A stretch of 37,242 bases of DNA from a virus, in the UHGV virus genome UHGV-1405961, one strand, 5' to 3'. The position numbers and the translations under genes are program-made. The notes under the pieces were generated by a model. The model was not told where the DNA came from. It did no database searches and saw only the letters and a program-made list of their open reading frames with translations. Below, in pieces: positions 1-30,108 of the stretch. Position 1 is the first letter of the stretch, and each line of letters begins with the position of its first letter.

Positions 1-152
1 CCTATCTCTTATCTGGAGATACAGCTACTGTCCGGTGTTTCAGGGGGCTACATCACTCCATTCGTGGGATATACAATCATGCTCAGTACATGGATAAGCG
101 CCGGGAAATGATGCAGTGGTGGGCTGACTGGATTGATGAGAAGGTGTCATAG
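1..152 (+). CDS. Partial CDS (3' end only, stop at 150-152); tail ...RGIYNHAQYMDKRREMMQWWADWIDEKVS resembles the C-terminus of P4-type tyrosine integrases
   Basis: Open frame runs from the window edge to TAG at 150-152, convergent with the tailspike gene. The MMQWWADWID tail and a Tyr in an R-x-x-Y context are recalled from P4-family integrase C-termini; not verified by search. Confidence 0.3.
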   Translation, partial: YLLSGDTATVRCFRGLHHSIRGIYNHAQYMDKRREMMQWWADWIDEKVS

Positions 153-240
153 GAAAGCAGCACAAAGCCTTGCAAACCGATGCAAAGCTTTGTGTGCCCC
201 ACTTTTGTCTCAAATAATCTTTCCGTCCTATGCTCGAAGG

Positions 241-3163: not shown

Positions 3164-3231
3164 GTCAATATTTCCTAATCCGATTTGTTGATACCGAAGC
3201 CCTGACTGTTCCCGCAGTTGGGGCTTCAACT

Positions 3232-3393
3232 TTACGCGCCAATGCGCCCTTCCTTCTTAAAGCTTTCCATTACTCTCTGATAAATCTCAGAGTTAACAGA
3301 CCGACCATTCTCTTCCGCCACCTTGCGTACCAAATCCAATACTTCTTTAGGCCACCGCAAATTGAACTGCGGCATCTTGCTCATTCCTTTCAT
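3232..3393 (-). CDS. arc: Arc repressor (ribbon-helix-helix)
   Basis: 53-aa product [53 protein letters not shown], recognised as essentially P22 Arc; starts at an internal Met of the 74-aa track ORF. Confidence 0.85.
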
Positions 3394-3407
3394 ATTCACC
3401 TCACAAT

Positions 3408-3455
3408 ATAGGTCCACGGTGGACCTATTGAGAATATAGTAGAGTGCTTCTATCA
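3408..3455. promoter_or_regulatory. immI operators: Omnt-like perfect palindrome ATAGGTCCACGGTGGACCTAT and Oarc-like ATAGTAGAGTGCTTCTATCAT in the divergent arc/mnt control region
   Basis: Both palindromes read directly from the sequence in the 90-bp interval between the arc and mnt starts; they match the known P22 Mnt and Arc operators as recalled. Confidence 0.7.
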
Positions 3456-3483
3456 TGTCAATACACTAACTTGGAGTGATGGC

Positions 3484-3735
3484 ATGGCTAGAGATGATCC
3501 GCACTTTAACTTCCGTATGCCTATGGAAGTAAGGGAGAAATTAAAATTCAGGGCGAAGGCGAATGGGAGATCAATGAACTCCGAGTTGTTACAAATCGTC
3601 CAAGATGCTCTATCAAAACCATCGCCTGTGACTGGATATCGCGACGATGCAGAACGACTCGCTGATGAGCAGTCAGAGCTTGTTAAGAAGATGGTGTTTG
3701 ATACGCTGAAGTATTTGTACAAAAAACCCACCTGA
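3484..3735 (+). CDS. mnt: Mnt repressor (maintenance of lysogeny, represses ant)
   Basis: 83-aa product MARDDPHFNFRMPMEVREKLKFRAKANGRSMNSELLQIVQDALSKP..., near-identical to P22 Mnt as recalled; divergent from arc. Confidence 0.85.
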   Translation: MARDDPHFNFRMPMEVREKLKFRAKANGRSMNSELLQIVQDALSKPSPVTGYRDDAERLADEQSELVKKMVFDTLKYLYKKPT

Positions 3736-20825: not shown

Positions 20826-20908
20826 ATAAAAAAGCCACCGTTGCAACTTAAGAGTCACTAACGGCAGCTTACCTTCTAATTATGGCTAAATGGCTAATTG
20901 CATGTCAA
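20826..20908 (-). promoter_or_regulatory. Late promoter pR' (-35 TTGACA, -10 CATAAT, 18-bp spacer) with an immediately following short terminated leader (tR'-like)
   Basis: Minus strand reads TTGACA-N18-CATAAT (plus 20903-20908 and 20879-20884), then hairpin CCGTT...AACGG with palindromic GTTGCAAC and a U-run from plus AAAAAA 20826-20832. The -35 lies inside the 3' end of Q. Confidence 0.5.
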
Positions 20909-21404
20909 GGCTTTTAACAGCAACATGCTTAACTTTCTCAACACGTTTACGCATTTTGAAAGCATTTTGCATCGGCTGGTATAAAACAAATAATGACGCT
21001 TTCAGGATGTCGTCAATTTCGTTTCTACAGGTTGCCAGTGAAGGTTTTCTCCATCCCTCGCCACCACGTCCACACATCTTGCGTTGCTTTGCAGTCGCGT
21101 GATAGTAGGATGCAATTGCTCGCTTAGATGAACCATGAGCGTAGTAGCTGAGGAGGATGCTAAAGGCTTTCTTGTCAATGTACATGACGGAATCGACGAC
21201 CTGAGAAATCAACATTCCATCATCATCATTACACATTGGCCTTGTCATAACTCTTCCCGGCTCTACGCTCTCCATGAACTTCGCTATTACGCTGCTCATG
21301 CGCTTTTCCAGGCGGCCTGAATAAACCCATGCGCCCCACAGTTCAAGCCAGCCATTCAGCCAATCGTGCTGTTCTTTGGTGAGGTTTAGTTCTCTTATGC
21401 TCAT
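20886..21404 (-). CDS. Q: Late-gene antiterminator Q (Q933W/Q82-like family)
   Basis: 172 aa; WGAW...RPMCNDDDGMLIS...LLSYYAHG pattern resembles the short Q antiterminators of Stx-type lambdoid phages; located between ninH and pR'/S. Confidence 0.7.
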   Translation of the reverse strand: MSIRELNLTKEQHDWLNGWLELWGAWVYSGRLEKRMSSVIAKFMESVEPGRVMTRPMCNDDDGMLISQVVDSVMYIDKKAFSILLSYYAHGSSKRAIASYYHATAKQRKMCGRGGEGWRKPSLATCRNEIDDILKASLFVLYQPMQNAFKMRKRVEKVKHVAVKSLDMQLAI

Positions 21405-24724: not shown

Positions 24725-24994
24725 TCATTCCTTCATCTCCCTTTCCATTTCATCAATGTCAACGTCATCAGGAAGATGGGAGCAATACGCCGCTATACCA
24801 TGATGATTTATCTCATACCCTTTGAACGTTACCATCTGGCGCGTAATCTCAACTTCGTTCAGGAATCCGTCATCGCATAACTGCCTGGCTATTTTCGATT
24901 TGGTCTGGATTATTGGTAGTGCCTGTTCTTTCAAAGCGCATGATATTTGTGCATCCCATGCCTTTTCGAGAATGGCTAATTGTTTTTTATTCAT
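24725..24994 (-). CDS. Hypothetical protein
   Basis: 89-aa ORF immediately downstream of the helicase gene; its start overlaps the helicase stop. Confidence 0.5.
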   Translation of the reverse strand: MNKKQLAILEKAWDAQISCALKEQALPIIQTKSKIARQLCDDGFLNEVEITRQMVTFKGYEINHHGIAAYCSHLPDDVDIDEMEREMKE

Positions 24995-26430
24995 CAGAAT
25001 CCTCCTTTCTTCTTGGACTGCGGTTCCTCGCGTTCACGGCGGCGCATTTCAGCAGACTGTTGGTCTGTGTCATAAATAGCGCCATTTGCCTGAATGCAAT
25101 ACACCGTGCCGGTATTGCCATGACGATTGAGACGAAGGATTAGTTCAGTTTCACCAGGTGGAACACTGTCATCAAAAGCGCCTTCCCGATGGACCCCGAC
25201 CCAATAATCGCAATCCTGTTCAATCTGCCCTGTATCTCGTGAGTCACTTGGTAATGGGCGTTTATTGGTTCGGCTTTCCAGTGCGCGGTTAAGCTGCGTC
25301 AGAAGCACAACAACGCAATCAAGCTCTTTGGCAAGGTTCTTCAGTCCTTTGGTGATCATGCCGTAAGCAAGGTCGTTGCGATCGGCCTTCTCAGCAGTCA
25401 TTAGTGTCAGGTAATCGACCAGAATCATGCCAACACATCCTTTTTCTCGCTTGATTCGACGGCTTTCGCTGACGATTTGAGCCAGAGATAATCCCGGCGT
25501 GTCGTCGATGTAAAGCAGGTCGATTTCACTCAAGCGATTGGCTGTTTCGATCGCCCTGTTGAAGTCACCATCGTAATCACCCTGATAGCCGTCATCAGCG
25601 TCATTTGTCGCCGGAAGGTAAAAAATATTCGGGTTAACACCAGACTTCTGCCCTACCAGTTTTTCCAGTATCTGATCACCTGGCATTTCAAGGCTGAACA
25701 TCAGAGCGGGCTTTTTCTCATGCACTGCGCAGTTGATTGCCATCTGGCTGTATAGCGTCGTTTTCCCCATCTTAGGGCGAGCGCCAATGACGAACAGAGA
25801 GCCTTTCACCAGACCTTTCGGTGACAGCATCCTGTCCAGCGATGGTATTCCTGTGCTCATTCCTCGTTGTTCACCTGACGGGTCAAATCGCTTCTCAAGG
25901 TCGCTAACCCAGTCTTCCATGACCTCACCAAATGAGCGAAGGCCGCGACGCGATCCGGTTTTTGCATGGTCTGTCAGTTGCGTGAAAATCGACTGAATAG
26001 CTTCGTACTTCTGCGTTGCAGTCATTCCATTGCGGGAATAGAGCAATTCCGTCGCTTCAGTCATGCGGTTGATGGCGTAGCGTTCCATTGCGGTTTCACG
26101 AACCTGCATTGCATAGGCAACGATGTTTGCTGCGCTTGGCGTGTTCTTTGCGATCTCAGCGATATAAGCAAAACCGCCAACAGACGCCGTTAACGATTTA
26201 CGCTCCAGTTCATCGAAAAGCGTCAGGCCATCTACTGGCTTTTGCTCCCGGTGCATTCTGGTTATCTCTTCGAAAAGGATTTTGTGTGGTCGGCTGTAAA
26301 ATGAATCAGGCTTCAGCATCGCCAGAACTTTCTGGACGCGCTCACTGCTGTCATCATCCAGAAGCAATCCACCAATCACCGCCTGCTCTGCCTCGATGCT
26401 ATGGGGCGGCGCATAAAAATTATCGGTCAT
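24994..26430 (-). CDS. Replicative DNA helicase (DnaB-like, P22 gene 12-type)
   Basis: 478 aa from ATG 26428-26430; DnaB N-terminal motif (IEAEQAVIGGLLLD) and Walker A (GARPKMGKTT); start overlaps the O-like gene 3' end. Confidence 0.9.
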   Translation of the reverse strand: MTDNFYAPPHSIEAEQAVIGGLLLDDDSSERVQKVLAMLKPDSFYSRPHKILFEEITRMHREQKPVDGLTLFDELERKSLTASVGGFAYIAEIAKNTPSAANIVAYAMQVRETAMERYAINRMTEATELLYSRNGMTATQKYEAIQSIFTQLTDHAKTGSRRGLRSFGEVMEDWVSDLEKRFDPSGEQRGMSTGIPSLDRMLSPKGLVKGSLFVIGARPKMGKTTLYSQMAINCAVHEKKPALMFSLEMPGDQILEKLVGQKSGVNPNIFYLPATNDADDGYQGDYDGDFNRAIETANRLSEIDLLYIDDTPGLSLAQIVSESRRIKREKGCVGMILVDYLTLMTAEKADRNDLAYGMITKGLKNLAKELDCVVVLLTQLNRALESRTNKRPLPSDSRDTGQIEQDCDYWVGVHREGAFDDSVPPGETELILRLNRHGNTGTVYCIQANGAIYDTDQQSAEMRRREREEPQSKKKGGF

Positions 26431-27319
26431 CGTGTTCACCCTCACGAACTTTCAGGTAGGTATTATCGTTAAGCAGGAAATCAAATCCCTTTTTGTGCCA
26501 GACGGTTCCGCGTTGATGGTTTGGACGCTCTTCGAACATCCATCGGCAATTTTCGCCTACGTAGCTCAAATAATTTCTCCAGTCCTGCATCGTGAAACCA
26601 TGCCCGTCAAGCTGGCGGGTTATCACTCCGGCTTTGCGCCAGAACGTTCGGATCTGGTTTTTACGCTTGTCATTCAGTGCGCGGATTCTTGGCGCTTCAG
26701 GAAGGATTTCGTGGTAAGCATCGACAACATCCTGACAGCTAACGGAAGGTTTTTTCTTGTCAGACTTTTTGTCTGCTGCGGTACTCTCTAATACGTCAGT
26801 ATTAGAGATAATATTATTATATTCTTTATCTGTGGTAATTTGCTGGTAATCTGCTGGTACAGTATTGCTTGCAGGCATTGGTATTGCTGGCTTTGAGGTG
26901 GTAATTTGCTGGTAATCTGCTGGTACAAAATTTGACTGATAATCGTCATATTTCTCTACCGAGAAAACTGAGAATTTACCGTGTGAAACCCAGTCAATCA
27001 TGCCGAGTTTTTTGAACTTTCTAAGCAGGTACTGAACGCGATCTGGTTTGAGTCCTGTTTCAAACGCCAGAGAGTTTCTACCGCCAAGTAGCTTCCCTCT
27101 GCCTACCAGAATTTCTCCTGCGTCAGTCATTACATACTCAGGCGTATGCTTTGCTTTGAGGATTAAGTGAACCCACAGATGCGCAGCTTCTGCGTCCTTG
27201 TAAAACGGCACATCCATAATTTTACGGTGCAGCAAGGCATACCCCTTACCGCTGCTTTGATGCGGTTGTTGTAGCCTTCTGGCCTCTCTGGCTTCGGCTA
27301 GATTAGATATGTTACTCAT
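26420..27319 (-). CDS. Replication initiator (lambda O / P22 gp18-like), containing the origin
   Basis: 299 aa; position upstream of the helicase; encodes the duplicated peptide [10 protein letters not shown](S/D)K from the internal DNA iterons. Confidence 0.75.
26832..26927. repeat. Origin-of-replication iterons inside the initiator gene
   Basis: GTGGTAATTTGCTGGTAATCTGCTGGTACA occurs twice (26832-26861 and 26898-26927) with related GGTATTGCTGG copies between them and an AT-rich tract (AGAGATAATATTATTATATTC) alongside at ~26808-26830. Confidence 0.65.
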
Positions 27320-27458
27320 GACCTTTCTCCTTCTGCATCAGCTTCACTTTTTCCAACTCAGCCCGGAATCGACCAGGCTGCTTGAAGCTGGACAGGAAGC
27401 GATCACGTAGTATGTGTTTGTGAATTTTGTCCTGGTAAGGACTGAGTGGTTTTGTCAT
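27312..27458 (-). CDS. Hypothetical small basic protein (48 aa) between cII and O
   Basis: Not in the supplied track (<60 aa). Translated by me: [53 protein letters not shown] 4 nt upstream; ATG overlaps the upstream stop (TAATG) and its stop overlaps the O-like start. Confidence 0.45.
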
Positions 27459-27862
27459 TAAGCCTCCTCTACTTCGTAATCAGCGAAGTAACCAGTAGAC
27501 ATTTTTAAAAACCTTGATTCGGTGACTGTGTAAGCCTTCCTTCCTTTCCTCTCCTTGCCTTCAGGCTCTATGAGGTGGCACGAATAAATGATTCTGCGCT
27601 GCCAGTTGCCTGGCATTTCCACCACTGCCAGAACCTCAAGAATTCTCTTTCCTTCAGCATCAGCGGTGTAAAAACACTGATCACCATAACCACAATCGGC
27701 TGGCTCATAATTTTTGTGACAACCGCCAATCCAGCGCTCATCGGTATGCACGTTGCCGTCATAAGACTGATAATCTGTGCATACGAAGATAAATGGATAT
27801 ACGGTTTCGAACTTGTCACCGGCCTTTATGCCGGTGTTTACTTGCTTGGTTTGTCCTGGCAT
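27458..27862 (-). CDS. Hypothetical Cys-containing protein (134 aa) inserted between cII and O
   Basis: ATG 27860-27862 with AGGAG 7 nt upstream; [32 protein letters not shown]...[20 protein letters not shown]...SCHLIEPEG. The track ORF extends upstream into cII out of frame. Confidence 0.55.
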
Positions 27863-27871
27863 AATTACTCC

Positions 27872-27938
27872 TGTTACTTGGCGTAACACAGTGTGCTTAA
27901 GCGTCCAGACTGCTACCAACAGCTGGGCGTTTTTCTTT
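27872..27938 (+). ncRNA. Candidate oop-like antisense RNA (antisense to the cII 3' end)
   Basis: Plus-strand promoter-like TTTACT(27837-27842)-N17-CATAAT(27860-27865), then hairpin CGTCCAGACTGCTACCAACAGCTGGGCG and TTTTTCTTTT ending about 40 nt inside the cII 3' end; the same arrangement as lambda oop. Confidence 0.4.
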
Positions 27939-28175
27939 TGTGAGAATCGATGCCACCTGCTGAGCAAGTCTCGCCATCTCATCATCAACAACTCCCCATT
28001 CAAGAACAGCCAGAAGCATGGCCATCTTTGGGATAAAGCTGTCTTTCCATCGCGAAATTTGCGATTCATTAATCCCTAACGCGTCGGCAACCTTTCGCTG
28101 ACCACGTACAGCAATTCGATTCAGGATGTTGCTTGTAATTGCATTCGCTTTCTTGCGAGTACTTGTAAGTTGCAT
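27897..28175 (-). CDS. cII: Transcriptional activator CII
   Basis: 92 aa from ATG 28173-28175; ...ESQISRWKDSFIPKMAMLLAVLEWGVVDDEMARLAQQVASILT recalled as near-identical to lambda CII over the conserved core. Confidence 0.85.
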   Translation of the reverse strand: MQLTSTRKKANAITSNILNRIAVRGQRKVADALGINESQISRWKDSFIPKMAMLLAVLEWGVVDDEMARLAQQVASILTKEKRPAVGSSLDA

Positions 28176-28195
28176 ATGTAAGTATTTCCTTAGAT
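28150..28195 (+). promoter_or_regulatory. Candidate pRE with CII-binding repeat (TTGC-N6-TTGT) overlapping the cII start
   Basis: TTGCGAGTACTTGT at 28153-28166 followed by CATATGTAAGTATTTCC, as in the lambda pRE region; orientation points toward cro/cI antisense. Confidence 0.35.
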
Positions 28196-28254
28196 AACAA
28201 TTGATTGAATGTATGCAAATAAATGCATACACCATAGGTGTGGTTTAATTTGAT

Positions 28255-28286
28255 GCCCTTTTTCAGGGCTGGGATGTGTAAGAGCG
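28255..28286 (-). promoter_or_regulatory. nutR (boxA CGCTCTTACACA, boxB GCCCTGAAAAAGGGC)
   Basis: Minus strand reads CGCTCTTACACATCCCAGCCCTGAAAAAGGGC, matching lambda nutR boxA/boxB as recalled; between cro and cII. Confidence 0.8.
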
Positions 28287-28294
28287 TTGATAAC

Positions 28295-28525
28295 TTAAGC
28301 AGCCATTAATTCAGGCCAGATGCTTTCCCAATCAACCGGATGAAGGTCTTTGCGAGTCACTTCACCATTGCTGAACTTCTCAATCAGAACACAAAGTGCT
28401 GCGCCCAATTCATGATTACGGCTAAGTGCTTTCCTCAAATAGCCGATAGAAGTTCCGCACTTGGTGGCAAATTCTCTCTGCTCTTCCAGTGAAAGGGAGT
28501 TCAGATACAAGCGGAGTTCTTCCAT
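28295..28525 (-). CDS. cro: Cro-like repressor (HTH; YdaS/Cro family), not lambda Cro
   Basis: 76 aa, first gene rightward of OR and divergent from cI; HTH-like QREFATKCGTSIGYLRKALS; AAGGAG Shine-Dalgarno. Confidence 0.7.
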   Translation of the reverse strand: MEELRLYLNSLSLEEQREFATKCGTSIGYLRKALSRNHELGAALCVLIEKFSNGEVTRKDLHPVDWESIWPELMAA

Positions 28526-28556
28526 TTGCTATCTCCTTCCCGTTGTTGAATAAGGT

Positions 28557-28633
28557 AAGTTTACCTGCAGGTAAAAAACAAATCAATACCCACAGGTTAT
28601 TTACCAACAGGTAATCAAAGATAGAATTAAATC
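28557..28633. promoter_or_regulatory. OR region: CI/Cro operators (TTTACCTGCAGGTAAA and TTTACCAACAGGTAAT) with divergent pR (minus) and pRM (plus)
   Basis: Perfect 16-bp palindrome at ~28560-28575 and a related site at ~28600-28615. Minus-strand TTGATT-N17-TAAACT overlaps the first site (pR); plus-strand TAGAAT lies 8 nt before the cI ATG, implying a near-leaderless cI mRNA as in lambda. Confidence 0.6.
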
Positions 28634-29320
28634 ATGGATAAATACGAACAAAGACGACTAAGGCTGATAGAGATAAGAGACCGATTCTGTAATGGAAAGG
28701 CCTCAGAGTTGGCTCGTCGAATAGAAAGGGAACCATCATACGTTTCCAGAATGCTGTATCCGGAAGGAAAAAGCGGAAAAAAACGCATTGCTGACGATAT
28801 GATGGAACTAATTGAAAAATCTTTTAATCTCCCACGCGGATGGATGGACATGCTTGCAGATAGCAAAGTTGGATCTGCAGACCATCTTGAGTTTGCGGGT
28901 AACGTTCGTGCGGGTTTTGTTCCGGTAATTGGTGAAGCCGTTTTGGGAGTTGATGGCTCAGTGGATATGATTGAATTCAGATCCGGTTGGTTAAGCATCT
29001 ACAGTGGCGATAAAGATGCTTACGGTCTGAAGGTTAAGGGTGACAGCATGTGGCCAAGGATTCAGTCAGGAGAATATGTTGTTATTGAACCAAATACGCC
29101 AGTACATCCAGGTGATGAAGTCTTTGTAAGGACCAAAGATGGTCATAACATGATAAAGATCATGAACAAAACAAGAGACGGAGACTATCAGTTTAGTAGT
29201 ATAAACAGCGATCACCGTCCAATCACTCTTCCTGTTGAAGAAGTTGATAAAATGCATTTTGTTTCAGCTATTGTGAAACACACTAGGTACGTAGACCAGG
29301 ACGATCTGCCAAAATTTTGA
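28634..29320 (+). CDS. cI: CI repressor (N-terminal HTH, C-terminal S24 LexA-like autopeptidase)
   Basis: 228 aa; S24-type C-terminal domain motifs (VKGDSMWPRIQSGEYVVIEP, Ser-Lys dyad context) and divergent position from cro. Confidence 0.85.
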   Translation: MDKYEQRRLRLIEIRDRFCNGKASELARRIEREPSYVSRMLYPEGKSGKKRIADDMMELIEKSFNLPRGWMDMLADSKVGSADHLEFAGNVRAGFVPVIGEAVLGVDGSVDMIEFRSGWLSIYSGDKDAYGLKVKGDSMWPRIQSGEYVVIEPNTPVHPGDEVFVRTKDGHNMIKIMNKTRDGDYQFSSINSDHRPITLPVEEVDKMHFVSAIVKHTRYVDQDDLPKF

Positions 29321-29334
29321 GGATAAAGCAGCAA

Positions 29335-29631
29335 ATGTTTATACCAGGTATAGTGGTCGCTGTTGTAATCATCTGCTTCATATGGGCAAAGTTATCTCCT
29401 GTAAGCTCTAAGCATACAGCTGAACTCATGAAGAAGAAGCATCTTATACATGAGGCAGAAACGATAATTAAGAAGTTCAAAGGCATGTCATATGACGACA
29501 TGTCATCAGATCAGATTGCTATATATAAATGCGCCATTGAGCGTCTTGACTACTTAAACGGACTCAAACCCAAACACACCCCGGTAGAATCAAAATTGCC
29601 GCAATGGCCAAGCAATCCAAATAGCTTCTGA
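29335..29631 (+). CDS. Hypothetical small membrane protein co-transcribed with cI (rex-slot moron)
   Basis: 98 aa from ATG 29335 (track ORF starts at TTG 29317); N-terminal TM helix MFIPGIVVAVVIICFIWAKL; AT-rich; followed 12 nt later by a strong terminator. Confidence 0.55.
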   Translation: MFIPGIVVAVVIICFIWAKLSPVSSKHTAELMKKKHLIHEAETIIKKFKGMSYDDMSSDQIAIYKCAIERLDYLNGLKPKHTPVESKLPQWPSNPNSF

Positions 29632-29642
29632 CATCTCCTTTC

Positions 29643-29667
29643 AGCCCGCAAAGCGGGCTTTTTTATA
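29643..29667 (+). terminator. Rho-independent terminator ending the cI operon
   Basis: AGCCCGCAAAGCGGGCT followed by TTTTTTAT. Confidence 0.75.
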
Positions 29668-29683
29668 TCAATCCAAAAAATTA

Positions 29684-29770
29684 ATTACCTGAAAATTCAA
29701 ACAGGTAAACTCTCACACCAATTTTATTTACCTGCAGGTATAGACAACAGTTTTACCTGTAGGTATATTT
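29684..29770 (+). promoter_or_regulatory. OL operators and pL promoter
   Basis: Operator copies TTTACCTGCAGGTATA (29727-29742) and TTTACCTGTAGGTATA (29752-29767) plus a split site at ~29686-29710; pL -35 TAGACA (29741-29746), 17-bp spacer, -10 TATATT (29764-29769). Confidence 0.65.
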
Positions 29771-29809
29771 TAAGCCATCAGCAGGACGCACTAACCACCA
29801 TGAAGGTGA

Positions 29810-29840
29810 TGCTCTTAAAAATTTAGCCCTGAAGAAGGGC
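29810..29840 (+). promoter_or_regulatory. nutL (boxA-like GCTCTTAA, boxB GCCCTGAAGAAGGGC)
   Basis: The string TGAAGGTGATGCTCTTAAAAATTTAGCCCTGAAGAAGGGCAGC matches lambda nutL as recalled. Confidence 0.8.
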
Positions 29841-30108
29841 AGCATTCAAAGCAGAAGGCTTTGGGGTGTGGTGAAGCCAGCTAGTCACTGGCAAGTGCTT
29901 ACCTACTGTTGAGCGGTGAAGCGCTCCCAACGCTAGCAATAGCGTGGACGAGATGGGGAGCCGCGGGCGATAAGGCCGCCATAACGCGCACGTTGTCGCA
30001 TGGAAAAATCGCTGGGGTGCCGGTTATACCCCTCCGAATGAGACTCAACAAGCTGGAGCTAGACTACCAGCCACCACACCACCAAAGCTAACTGACAGGA
30101 GAATCCAG

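Follow-up and report, generated by a model that had tools for sequence, protein, structure and literature searches.

A conserved antisense RNA gene of the oop/M3 type is predicted opposite the 3′ end of cII in a prophage

Does the short region between cII and the gene that follows it in this prophage carry, on the opposite strand, an antisense RNA gene of the class to which lambda oop belongs? An earlier note, made from the letters alone, had placed an oop-like antisense RNA on the strand across from the end of cII, and that claim is now backed by homology, by a covariance-model match and by covariation. The sequence considered is UHGV virus genome UHGV-1405961, a stretch of 37,242 nucleotides referred to here as the window. 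Its early right operon, with a nutR region that we take to be lambda-like, lies on the minus strand and includes a cro-like gene (28295-28525), cII (27897..28175), a gene for a 134-aa protein of PHROG 30464 (27458..27862), a 48-aa DUF2740/hkaW-like gene (27312..27458), an O-like gene (26420-27319) and a gene for a phage DnaB-type helicase (24994-26445). The 92-aa cII product belongs to the lambda CII family (Pfam PF05269 Phage_CII, E 4.5e-43). The DUF2740 gene, which overlaps the end of the 134-aa gene in a TAATG stop/start, was identified by Pfam PF10872 (E 9e-29) and by the annotation of phage HK620, in which the DUF2740/hkaW gene directly follows pO. An identical cII is annotated by RefSeq in E. 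coli MS 115-1, and that record carries an identical copy of the RNA locus, with the RNA unannotated there too. The copy, at 3244832-3245352 of NZ_CP146665, has 100% identity to 27440-27960 of the window.

The element TTTACT-N17-CATAAT, which the earlier note had read on the plus strand, was recovered by a promoter scan that places the predicted promoter pO at 27837..27865. The -35 hexamer TTTACT (27837..27842) falls within the 134-aa gene at codons 7-9 (Q-V-N), and the extended -10 TGgCATAAT (27857..27865) includes a CAT (27860-62) that is the ATG of the same gene. Together the hexamers match the consensus at nine of 12 positions, with a 17-nt spacer and a TG one base 5′ of the -10. The Shine-Dalgarno sequence of the 134-aa gene, AGGAG, was read directly from the minus strand (27868..27872) and adjoins the predicted RNA +1. 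The -10 thus does overlap the start codon of the 134-aa gene, as had been proposed, but the overlap is no peculiarity of that gene, since lambda is arranged alike with O, phi80 with gene 15, HK620 with hkaW and Sf6 with gene 42. Because the lambda CATAAT likewise contains the ATG of O, sequence comparison identifies the overlap as the ancestral pO/O layout, owing nothing to an insertion.

Transcription is predicted to start at G27873, 7 nt past the -10, a placement based on the match of 27873-27895 to the first 23 nt of the 60-nt phi80 M3 RNA at 22 of 23 positions, and to end within the T-run, giving an RNA of ∼60-64 nt (27873..27934, plus strand). The earlier note had proposed a transcript of 65-70 nt from 27870; the site itself stands, and homology corrects its start and length to these values. 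Folding with RNAfold gave a 5′ hairpin, GUUAC-UUGGC-GUAAC (27873..27887), and a second hairpin of 13 pairs and one bulge (27899..27932), the equivalent of the tO terminator, which is encoded in the cII codons KRPAVGSSLDA. It runs into the T-run TTTTTCTTTT (27930..27939), which on the opposite strand forms K-E-K codons of cII, is kept in all variants examined below and coincides with a mosaic-block junction. The proposed hairpin and U-run ending within the 3′ end of cII are therefore both present. The plus strand folds at -21.2 kcal/mol and the minus strand at -16.5, G-U pairs making the terminator stem more stable on the plus strand; taken by itself, the window RNA has a modest fold z-score (-1.6 to -1.8). 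The cII stop codon occupies 27897-99, so that the first 24 nt of the RNA fall inside the 34-nt spacer between cII and the 134-aa gene and the remaining ∼36-38 nt are antisense to the final ∼12 cII codons. No part of the RNA reaches the 134-aa ORF, and pairing stops one base short of that ORF's Shine-Dalgarno sequence. A simple terminator scan did not report the oop terminator, owing to the bulge in its stem. What it flagged instead was a plus-strand hairpin at 27817-27836, with a perfect 7-bp stem (CACCGGC-CTTTAT-GCCGGTG), inside the 134-aa ORF and just 5′ of the -35; neither HK639-type nor L025-type homologs conserve this hairpin, which was set aside as probably due to chance.

Taken on its own, a 9/12 promoter match is no more than chance: four promoter-like sites of pO quality were found in the 3 kb scanned, against 5.0 ± 2.3 expected. 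The combination of a promoter-like site with a stable hairpin and T-run 45-95 nt from it was then counted over both strands of the 37 kb, and two such pairs occurred in the window versus 0.7 in dinucleotide shuffles. One is the pO site and the other is pR′/tR′, both being places where lambda makes its classical short RNAs. The second pair, at 20833-20908 on the minus strand, consists of TTGACA-N17-CATAAT, followed ∼46 nt on by the hairpin GCUGCCGUU...AACGGUGGC and then UUUUUUAUUU. A Q-like antiterminator ORF (20886-21404, minus strand) immediately precedes it and holin and lysozyme genes come after it, and from that location we read it as the late promoter pR′ with its first terminator tR′, the analogue of lambda 6S RNA. 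For the antisense RNA at pO, the evidence that carries decisive weight is comparative.

A covariance model (R1) was built from seven phi80-type sequences, none of them from the lineage of the window; L021, which MAFFT mis-registered, was left out of the alignment. The model matches 27873-27938 on the plus strand over its full length with 53.1 bits (E 3.1e-11), and its next-best match in the window reaches 18 bits. Taken with the M3 match, this identifies the feature, at the level of sequence, as a homolog of lambda oop and phi80 M3 RNA. An oop/M3 model seems to be absent from Rfam 15: scanning 26000-30000 at E ≤ 10 returned no oop/M3 family and no match in 27800-27950, and a scan of the whole window at the gathering threshold returned no oop/M3 family and only sar, at 3165-3231. 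Because no such model exists in Rfam, automatic pipelines miss RNAs of this class.

The sar match is to the P22-type antisense RNA (plus strand; RF00262, 71.6 bits), in an immI region with Mnt (3484-3735, plus strand), Arc (3232-3456, minus strand) and an Ant-like antirepressor (2285 to ∼3163, minus strand). It is also the 18-bit second match of R1, found because it shares the design of M3-type RNAs, with a 5′ hairpin and a terminator bearing a GUUCCCGC loop. The arrangement of sar is analogous, its promoter lying where the downstream gene (ant) begins and its terminator in the upstream gene; sar is not homologous to the RNA at pO, however, for its locus is immI and its target is the ant ribosome-binding site.

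Homologs of the 134-aa gene were collected from 30 viral contigs and one Citrobacter chromosome, 31 loci in all; the scan of genome contigs contributed only the Citrobacter locus. The gene follows a cII-type gene in 27 of the 31, and these 27 loci comprise about 20 distinct variants adjacent to pO. All of these variants, and likewise lambda, phi80, HK620 and Sf6, have the full set of pO-oop features: a -35, a spacer of 17 or 18 nt, a -10 of CATAAT, CATACT or TATAAT, a G as first base of the RNA, a hairpin at the 5′ end, and a GC-rich hairpin that leads into a T-run. Across the variants the RNA varies from 60 to 84 nt and the terminator has at least eight different stem sequences, and in nearly all variants scored the fold is more stable on the oop strand. 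The -35 TTTACT is unchanged wherever the 134-aa gene is downstream of pO, in the distinct variants scored and in the raw sequence of L034 too. It persists even where the protein has diverged to as little as 62% identity, and disappears only where the gene does not adjoin cII. Such is the case in L030-L033, where the homolog occurs in another context with neither an adjoining pO nor TTTACT; these homologs also do not have the N-terminal "xxQTKQVN" segment whose codons hold the -35. Residues 1-9 of the 134-aa protein are modelled as disordered. L033 does contain a strong M3-type RNA (126-190, minus strand; 70.6 bits) ∼2.3 kb upstream of its 134-aa homolog, which suggests that the gene can sit further along what may be the same operon.

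Conservation extends through the -10 and start region. The sequence TGnCATAAT[T/G]ACTCC[T/C]GT is common to lambda, HK620, Sf6 and the window, with AATCC in HK639 and CATACT in phi80. Within it, CATAAT-N7-G, whose CAT supplies the start codon of the next gene, is common to lambda, HK620, Sf6, HK639 and the window (the phi80 -10 again being CATACT), and ACTCC, the complement of the Shine-Dalgarno sequence, is kept in lambda, HK620, Sf6 and phi80 and reads AATCC in HK639. Part of this conservation at the -10 and Shine-Dalgarno sequence has other causes, namely a translation initiation region and a mosaic boundary annotated in Sf6. In the gene that follows pO the second codon is CCA (27857-59) in the window, ACA in lambda O, TCA in phi80 gene 15, ACA in HK620 hkaW and GCA in HK639_53; being NCA in each of these five unrelated genes, it preserves the TGn of the extended -10 on the oop strand. 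In the L025-L029 group this codon is CCT and the TG of the extended -10 is missing.

The pairing itself was evaluated in an alignment of 11 M3-type variants: of the cells that belong to the proposed structure, 98.8% are paired. Among the 10 terminator pairs, seven vary on both sides yet stay paired. Column shuffling never reproduced the observed percentage paired, double-change cells, pair types or covariation score (0 of 500 shuffles), and the count of pairs with double changes was reached in one shuffle of 500; sliding the partner by 1-3 columns lowered pairing to 33-56%. G-U pairs are frequent, which shows that it is the oop-strand helix that is under selection. Since the stem at the 5′ end never varies among the 11 sequences, only its loop differing in L020 and phi80, covariation neither supports nor contradicts the 5′ hairpin. 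Loci with an 85-nt gap, phi80 and HK639 among them, keep the terminator even though it is non-coding there. Among the terminator loops compared, L026 included, a UU(N)CCGC-like motif is shared: UUGCCG in lambda, UUACCG in phi80, UUCCCG in P22 and L027, and CUACCAA (27913-19) in the window. The loop ACC is invariant across the 11 M3-type sequences, in the non-coding context as well.

The sequence elements, their homology to known RNAs, the conservation of the promoter and the covariation of the terminator are thus matters of direct observation. On this comparative evidence the feature is identified as a real and conserved oop/M3-type antisense RNA gene with its pO, unannotated in this genome, and the copy in this prophage is probably functional.

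The loci differ in how the RNA is fitted to cII. Where cII is of the lambda type (92-100 aa), its stop codon is 26-42 nt (mostly 32-36 nt) from the next ATG and the codons of the protein's C-terminal tail (…T-K-E-K-R-P-A…) contain the terminator; where it is of the phi80 type (∼180 aa), an 85-nt gap separates the two and the RNA is wholly intergenic. By this comparison the window RNA is a chimera, with an M3-type 5′ half and a terminator embedded in a lambda-type cII. Segment-wise identities delimit a mosaic block, 27459..27934, that comprises the 134-aa gene, pO, the whole RNA and the C-terminal tail of cII. The block is 89-100% identical in L011, L012 and L013 (about 2425-2905 there), in which the sequence outside it is unrelated to the window (56-66% in the cII bodies and 53-57% in the downstream genes). 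HK620 is the converse, with 99% identity in the DUF2740 gene and 89% in the cII body to the window and with the block absent. The joints of the block are the T-run of the RNA and the TAATG in which stop and start codons overlap. The final ∼12 cII codons (KEKRPAVGSSLDA) move together with the RNA and the 134-aa gene, apart from the cII body; the same tail is borne by four different cII bodies, with the recombination joint at the RNA T-run. In the Sf6 annotation the spot at the pO -10 and Shine-Dalgarno sequence is listed as boundary sequence bsq5. That the 134-aa gene was inserted beside the RNA, as the earlier note supposed, is not borne out: gene, pO, RNA and cII tail have been inherited as one block, and the block identities argue that the RNA and the gene arrived together, the RNA not having been there beforehand.

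The C-terminal tail of lambda CII is a proteolysis tag, so that swapping the RNA would also swap the tail. We raise tentatively the possibility that 27459-27934 is a portable cassette that recombines at the T-run (T-K-E-K codons) and at TAATG, in which the CII tail is exchanged together with its antisense RNA and in which the 9-residue N-terminal extension of the 134-aa protein mainly serves to carry the pO -35, the cassette gene being built to be gated by pO firing.

As to function, the locus is very probably the pO-oop unit of this phage, of the phi80 M3 sequence type, and would act as lambda oop does. A sigma-70 promoter, pO, directed against the early rightward operon, would start the ∼60-64-nt RNA at G27873, and the RNA would fold into the 5′ hairpin and the intrinsic terminator hairpin and end in the T-run inside cII. 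It would be fully complementary to the pR transcript, from the base beside the Shine-Dalgarno sequence of the 134-aa gene, through the spacer, into the 3′ end of cII. Lambda oop forms a duplex with the cII-O transcript; RNase III cuts outside cII, in the spacer by report, and the cII mRNA then decays. By analogy the duplex of ∼60 bp would be cut by RNase III, the cII mRNA would be destabilised, less CII would be made and the decision would tilt to lytic growth. Firing of pO against pR would in addition damp read-through into the 134-aa, DUF2740, O-like and DnaB-like genes, as it does in lambda, where pO firing against pR lowers pR read-through and affects replication (PMC3985674). We infer from these parallels that this phage transcribes the RNA, that the duplex is a substrate of RNase III and that CII and the downstream genes respond. 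An effect on cII is plausible despite an overlap shorter than the 52 nt of lambda. Because the RNA stops short of the Shine-Dalgarno sequence of the 134-aa gene, an effect on that gene would have to come through promoter interference or through cutting in the spacer; we speculate that it would be by RNase III cutting in the spacer or, most likely, by interference.

It might instead be that the RNA is made but that its chief role is the interference of pO transcription with pR, tuning the 134-aa and replication genes, with cII little affected owing to the short overlap. Lambda with a pO- mutation shows more pR read-through and replicates less well, and oop supplied in trans has no effect on the O-P mRNA, whose stability is unchanged (PMC3985674). 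The RNA of phi80 and HK639 lies entirely in the spacer between cII and the next gene and pO moves with the 134-aa gene as one block; with the homologous RNA clear of the cII ORF there and the overlap short here, the antisense target may be the spacer and not cII proper. Against a mainly interfering role, expression of lambda oop abolishes CII activities, the terminator stays inside cII in all lambda-type cII layouts, and the antisense and interference roles are compatible with each other, and we consider it rather unlikely that interference is the chief role. It is improbable that the RNA is an M3-type RNase P substrate that is cut to a shorter species with a function other than that of oop, for example in trans: M3 is a known hairpin-type RNase P substrate and the window has its 5′ half almost exactly, but the window 3′ hairpin differs in sequence, is bulged and has another loop, and no trans target is known for M3. 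Finally, the view that there is no functional RNA at all, the conserved CATAATTACTCC being only start codon, ribosome-binding site and recombination linker and the hairpin and T-run a by-product of cII tail codons, can draw on the bsq5 boundary in Sf6, the mosaic junctions at the T-run and ATG and the chance-level promoter score, but is very hard to reconcile with a hairpin and T-run kept over at least eight stems with compensatory changes and oop-strand G-U pairs, also in non-coding loci, with a TTTACT that persists to 62% protein identity and is lost only away from cII, and with homologs detected experimentally in lambda and P22 and characterised as an RNase P substrate in phi80 (M3).

The preferred reading, an RNA of the phi80 M3 type that would act as lambda oop does, adds little to biology, the class having been known since the 1970s and HK639 already annotating an M3-like RNA beside the same 134-aa gene, but the RNA gene deserves annotation. 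Minor points of interest are its nature as a chimera of M3 and lambda types, the absence of a LexA-box core and its travelling with the 134-aa gene. The block shared with that uncharacterised gene offers a handle on the gene's role and on its gating by pO.

Among known systems, lambda oop is like the window RNA in position and strand, in being antisense to the 3′ end of cII and in starting just before the next gene, which is O in lambda and the 134-aa gene in the window. Two base pairs separate the lambda pO -10 from the first O codon (PMC3985674). On the oop strand lambda reads TTGAGT-N17-CATAAT-GACTCCT-G, compared with TTTACT-N17-CATAAT-TACTCCT-G in the window, and both have the TGn extension, a 7-nt discriminator, a G start and two hairpins, the second being an intrinsic terminator in the cII tail codons (K-K/E-K-R-P-A). 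Lambda oop is 77 nt long and overlaps cII by 52 nt, whereas the window RNA is predicted at ∼60-64 nt with an overlap of ∼36-38 nt. The RNA bodies are unrelated in sequence, the M3-type model having no match to lambda oop at E ≤ 1. In lambda a LexA-box core, CTG-N10-CAG (CTGTTGATAGATCCAG), spans +1; a search of 27830-27940 for this core pattern found none, so that LexA control of the window pO was rejected at the level of the core pattern and SOS control is not predicted.

The phi80 M3 RNA (GenBank JX871397, ncRNA PHI80_R1, 60 nt) lies between cII and gene 15, is described in its record as "M3 RNA; homolog of lambda oop RNA", and is a phage-induced small RNA and hairpin-type substrate of RNase P. 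It shares with the window the 5′ hairpin GUUAC-N5-GUAAC and the ACACAGUGUG linker. Its terminator is a perfect 15-pair stem with a UACC loop, compared with 13 pairs, a bulge and a 7-nt loop in the window. The phi80 RNA is wholly intergenic (cII of the 180-aa type, 85-nt gap), whereas the window terminator is inside cII; its -10 is CATACT and its -35 is inside gene 15. In HK639 a 60-nt "M3-like RNA" (HM208537, 37910..37969), annotated without a strand, lies directly upstream of HK639_53 (L015), a homolog of the 134-aa protein with 91% identity. HK639 and the window are alike in the -35 TTTACT, the -10 CATAAT and the 5′ half of the RNA, but the terminator and cII of HK639 are of the phi80 type, unlike those of the window, and as in phi80 the RNA does not overlap the cII ORF.

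The oop RNAs of P22, HK620, Sf6 and BTP1 have the same locus and architecture as the window RNA, and P22-like phages are otherwise related to the window prophage through an immI region with sar and through the DUF2740-O-DnaB genes. Their RNA body differs (GUGGAUUGAUCCAGUC...), R1 scoring only 14 bits on HK620 and Sf6, and in P22-type phages, unlike the window, pO directly abuts the start codon of DUF2740/gene 42. The P22 oop was detected experimentally at 63 nt and the OOP of BTP1 by transcriptomics; RNAs homologous to the one predicted here have been detected in lambda, phi80, P22 and BTP1.
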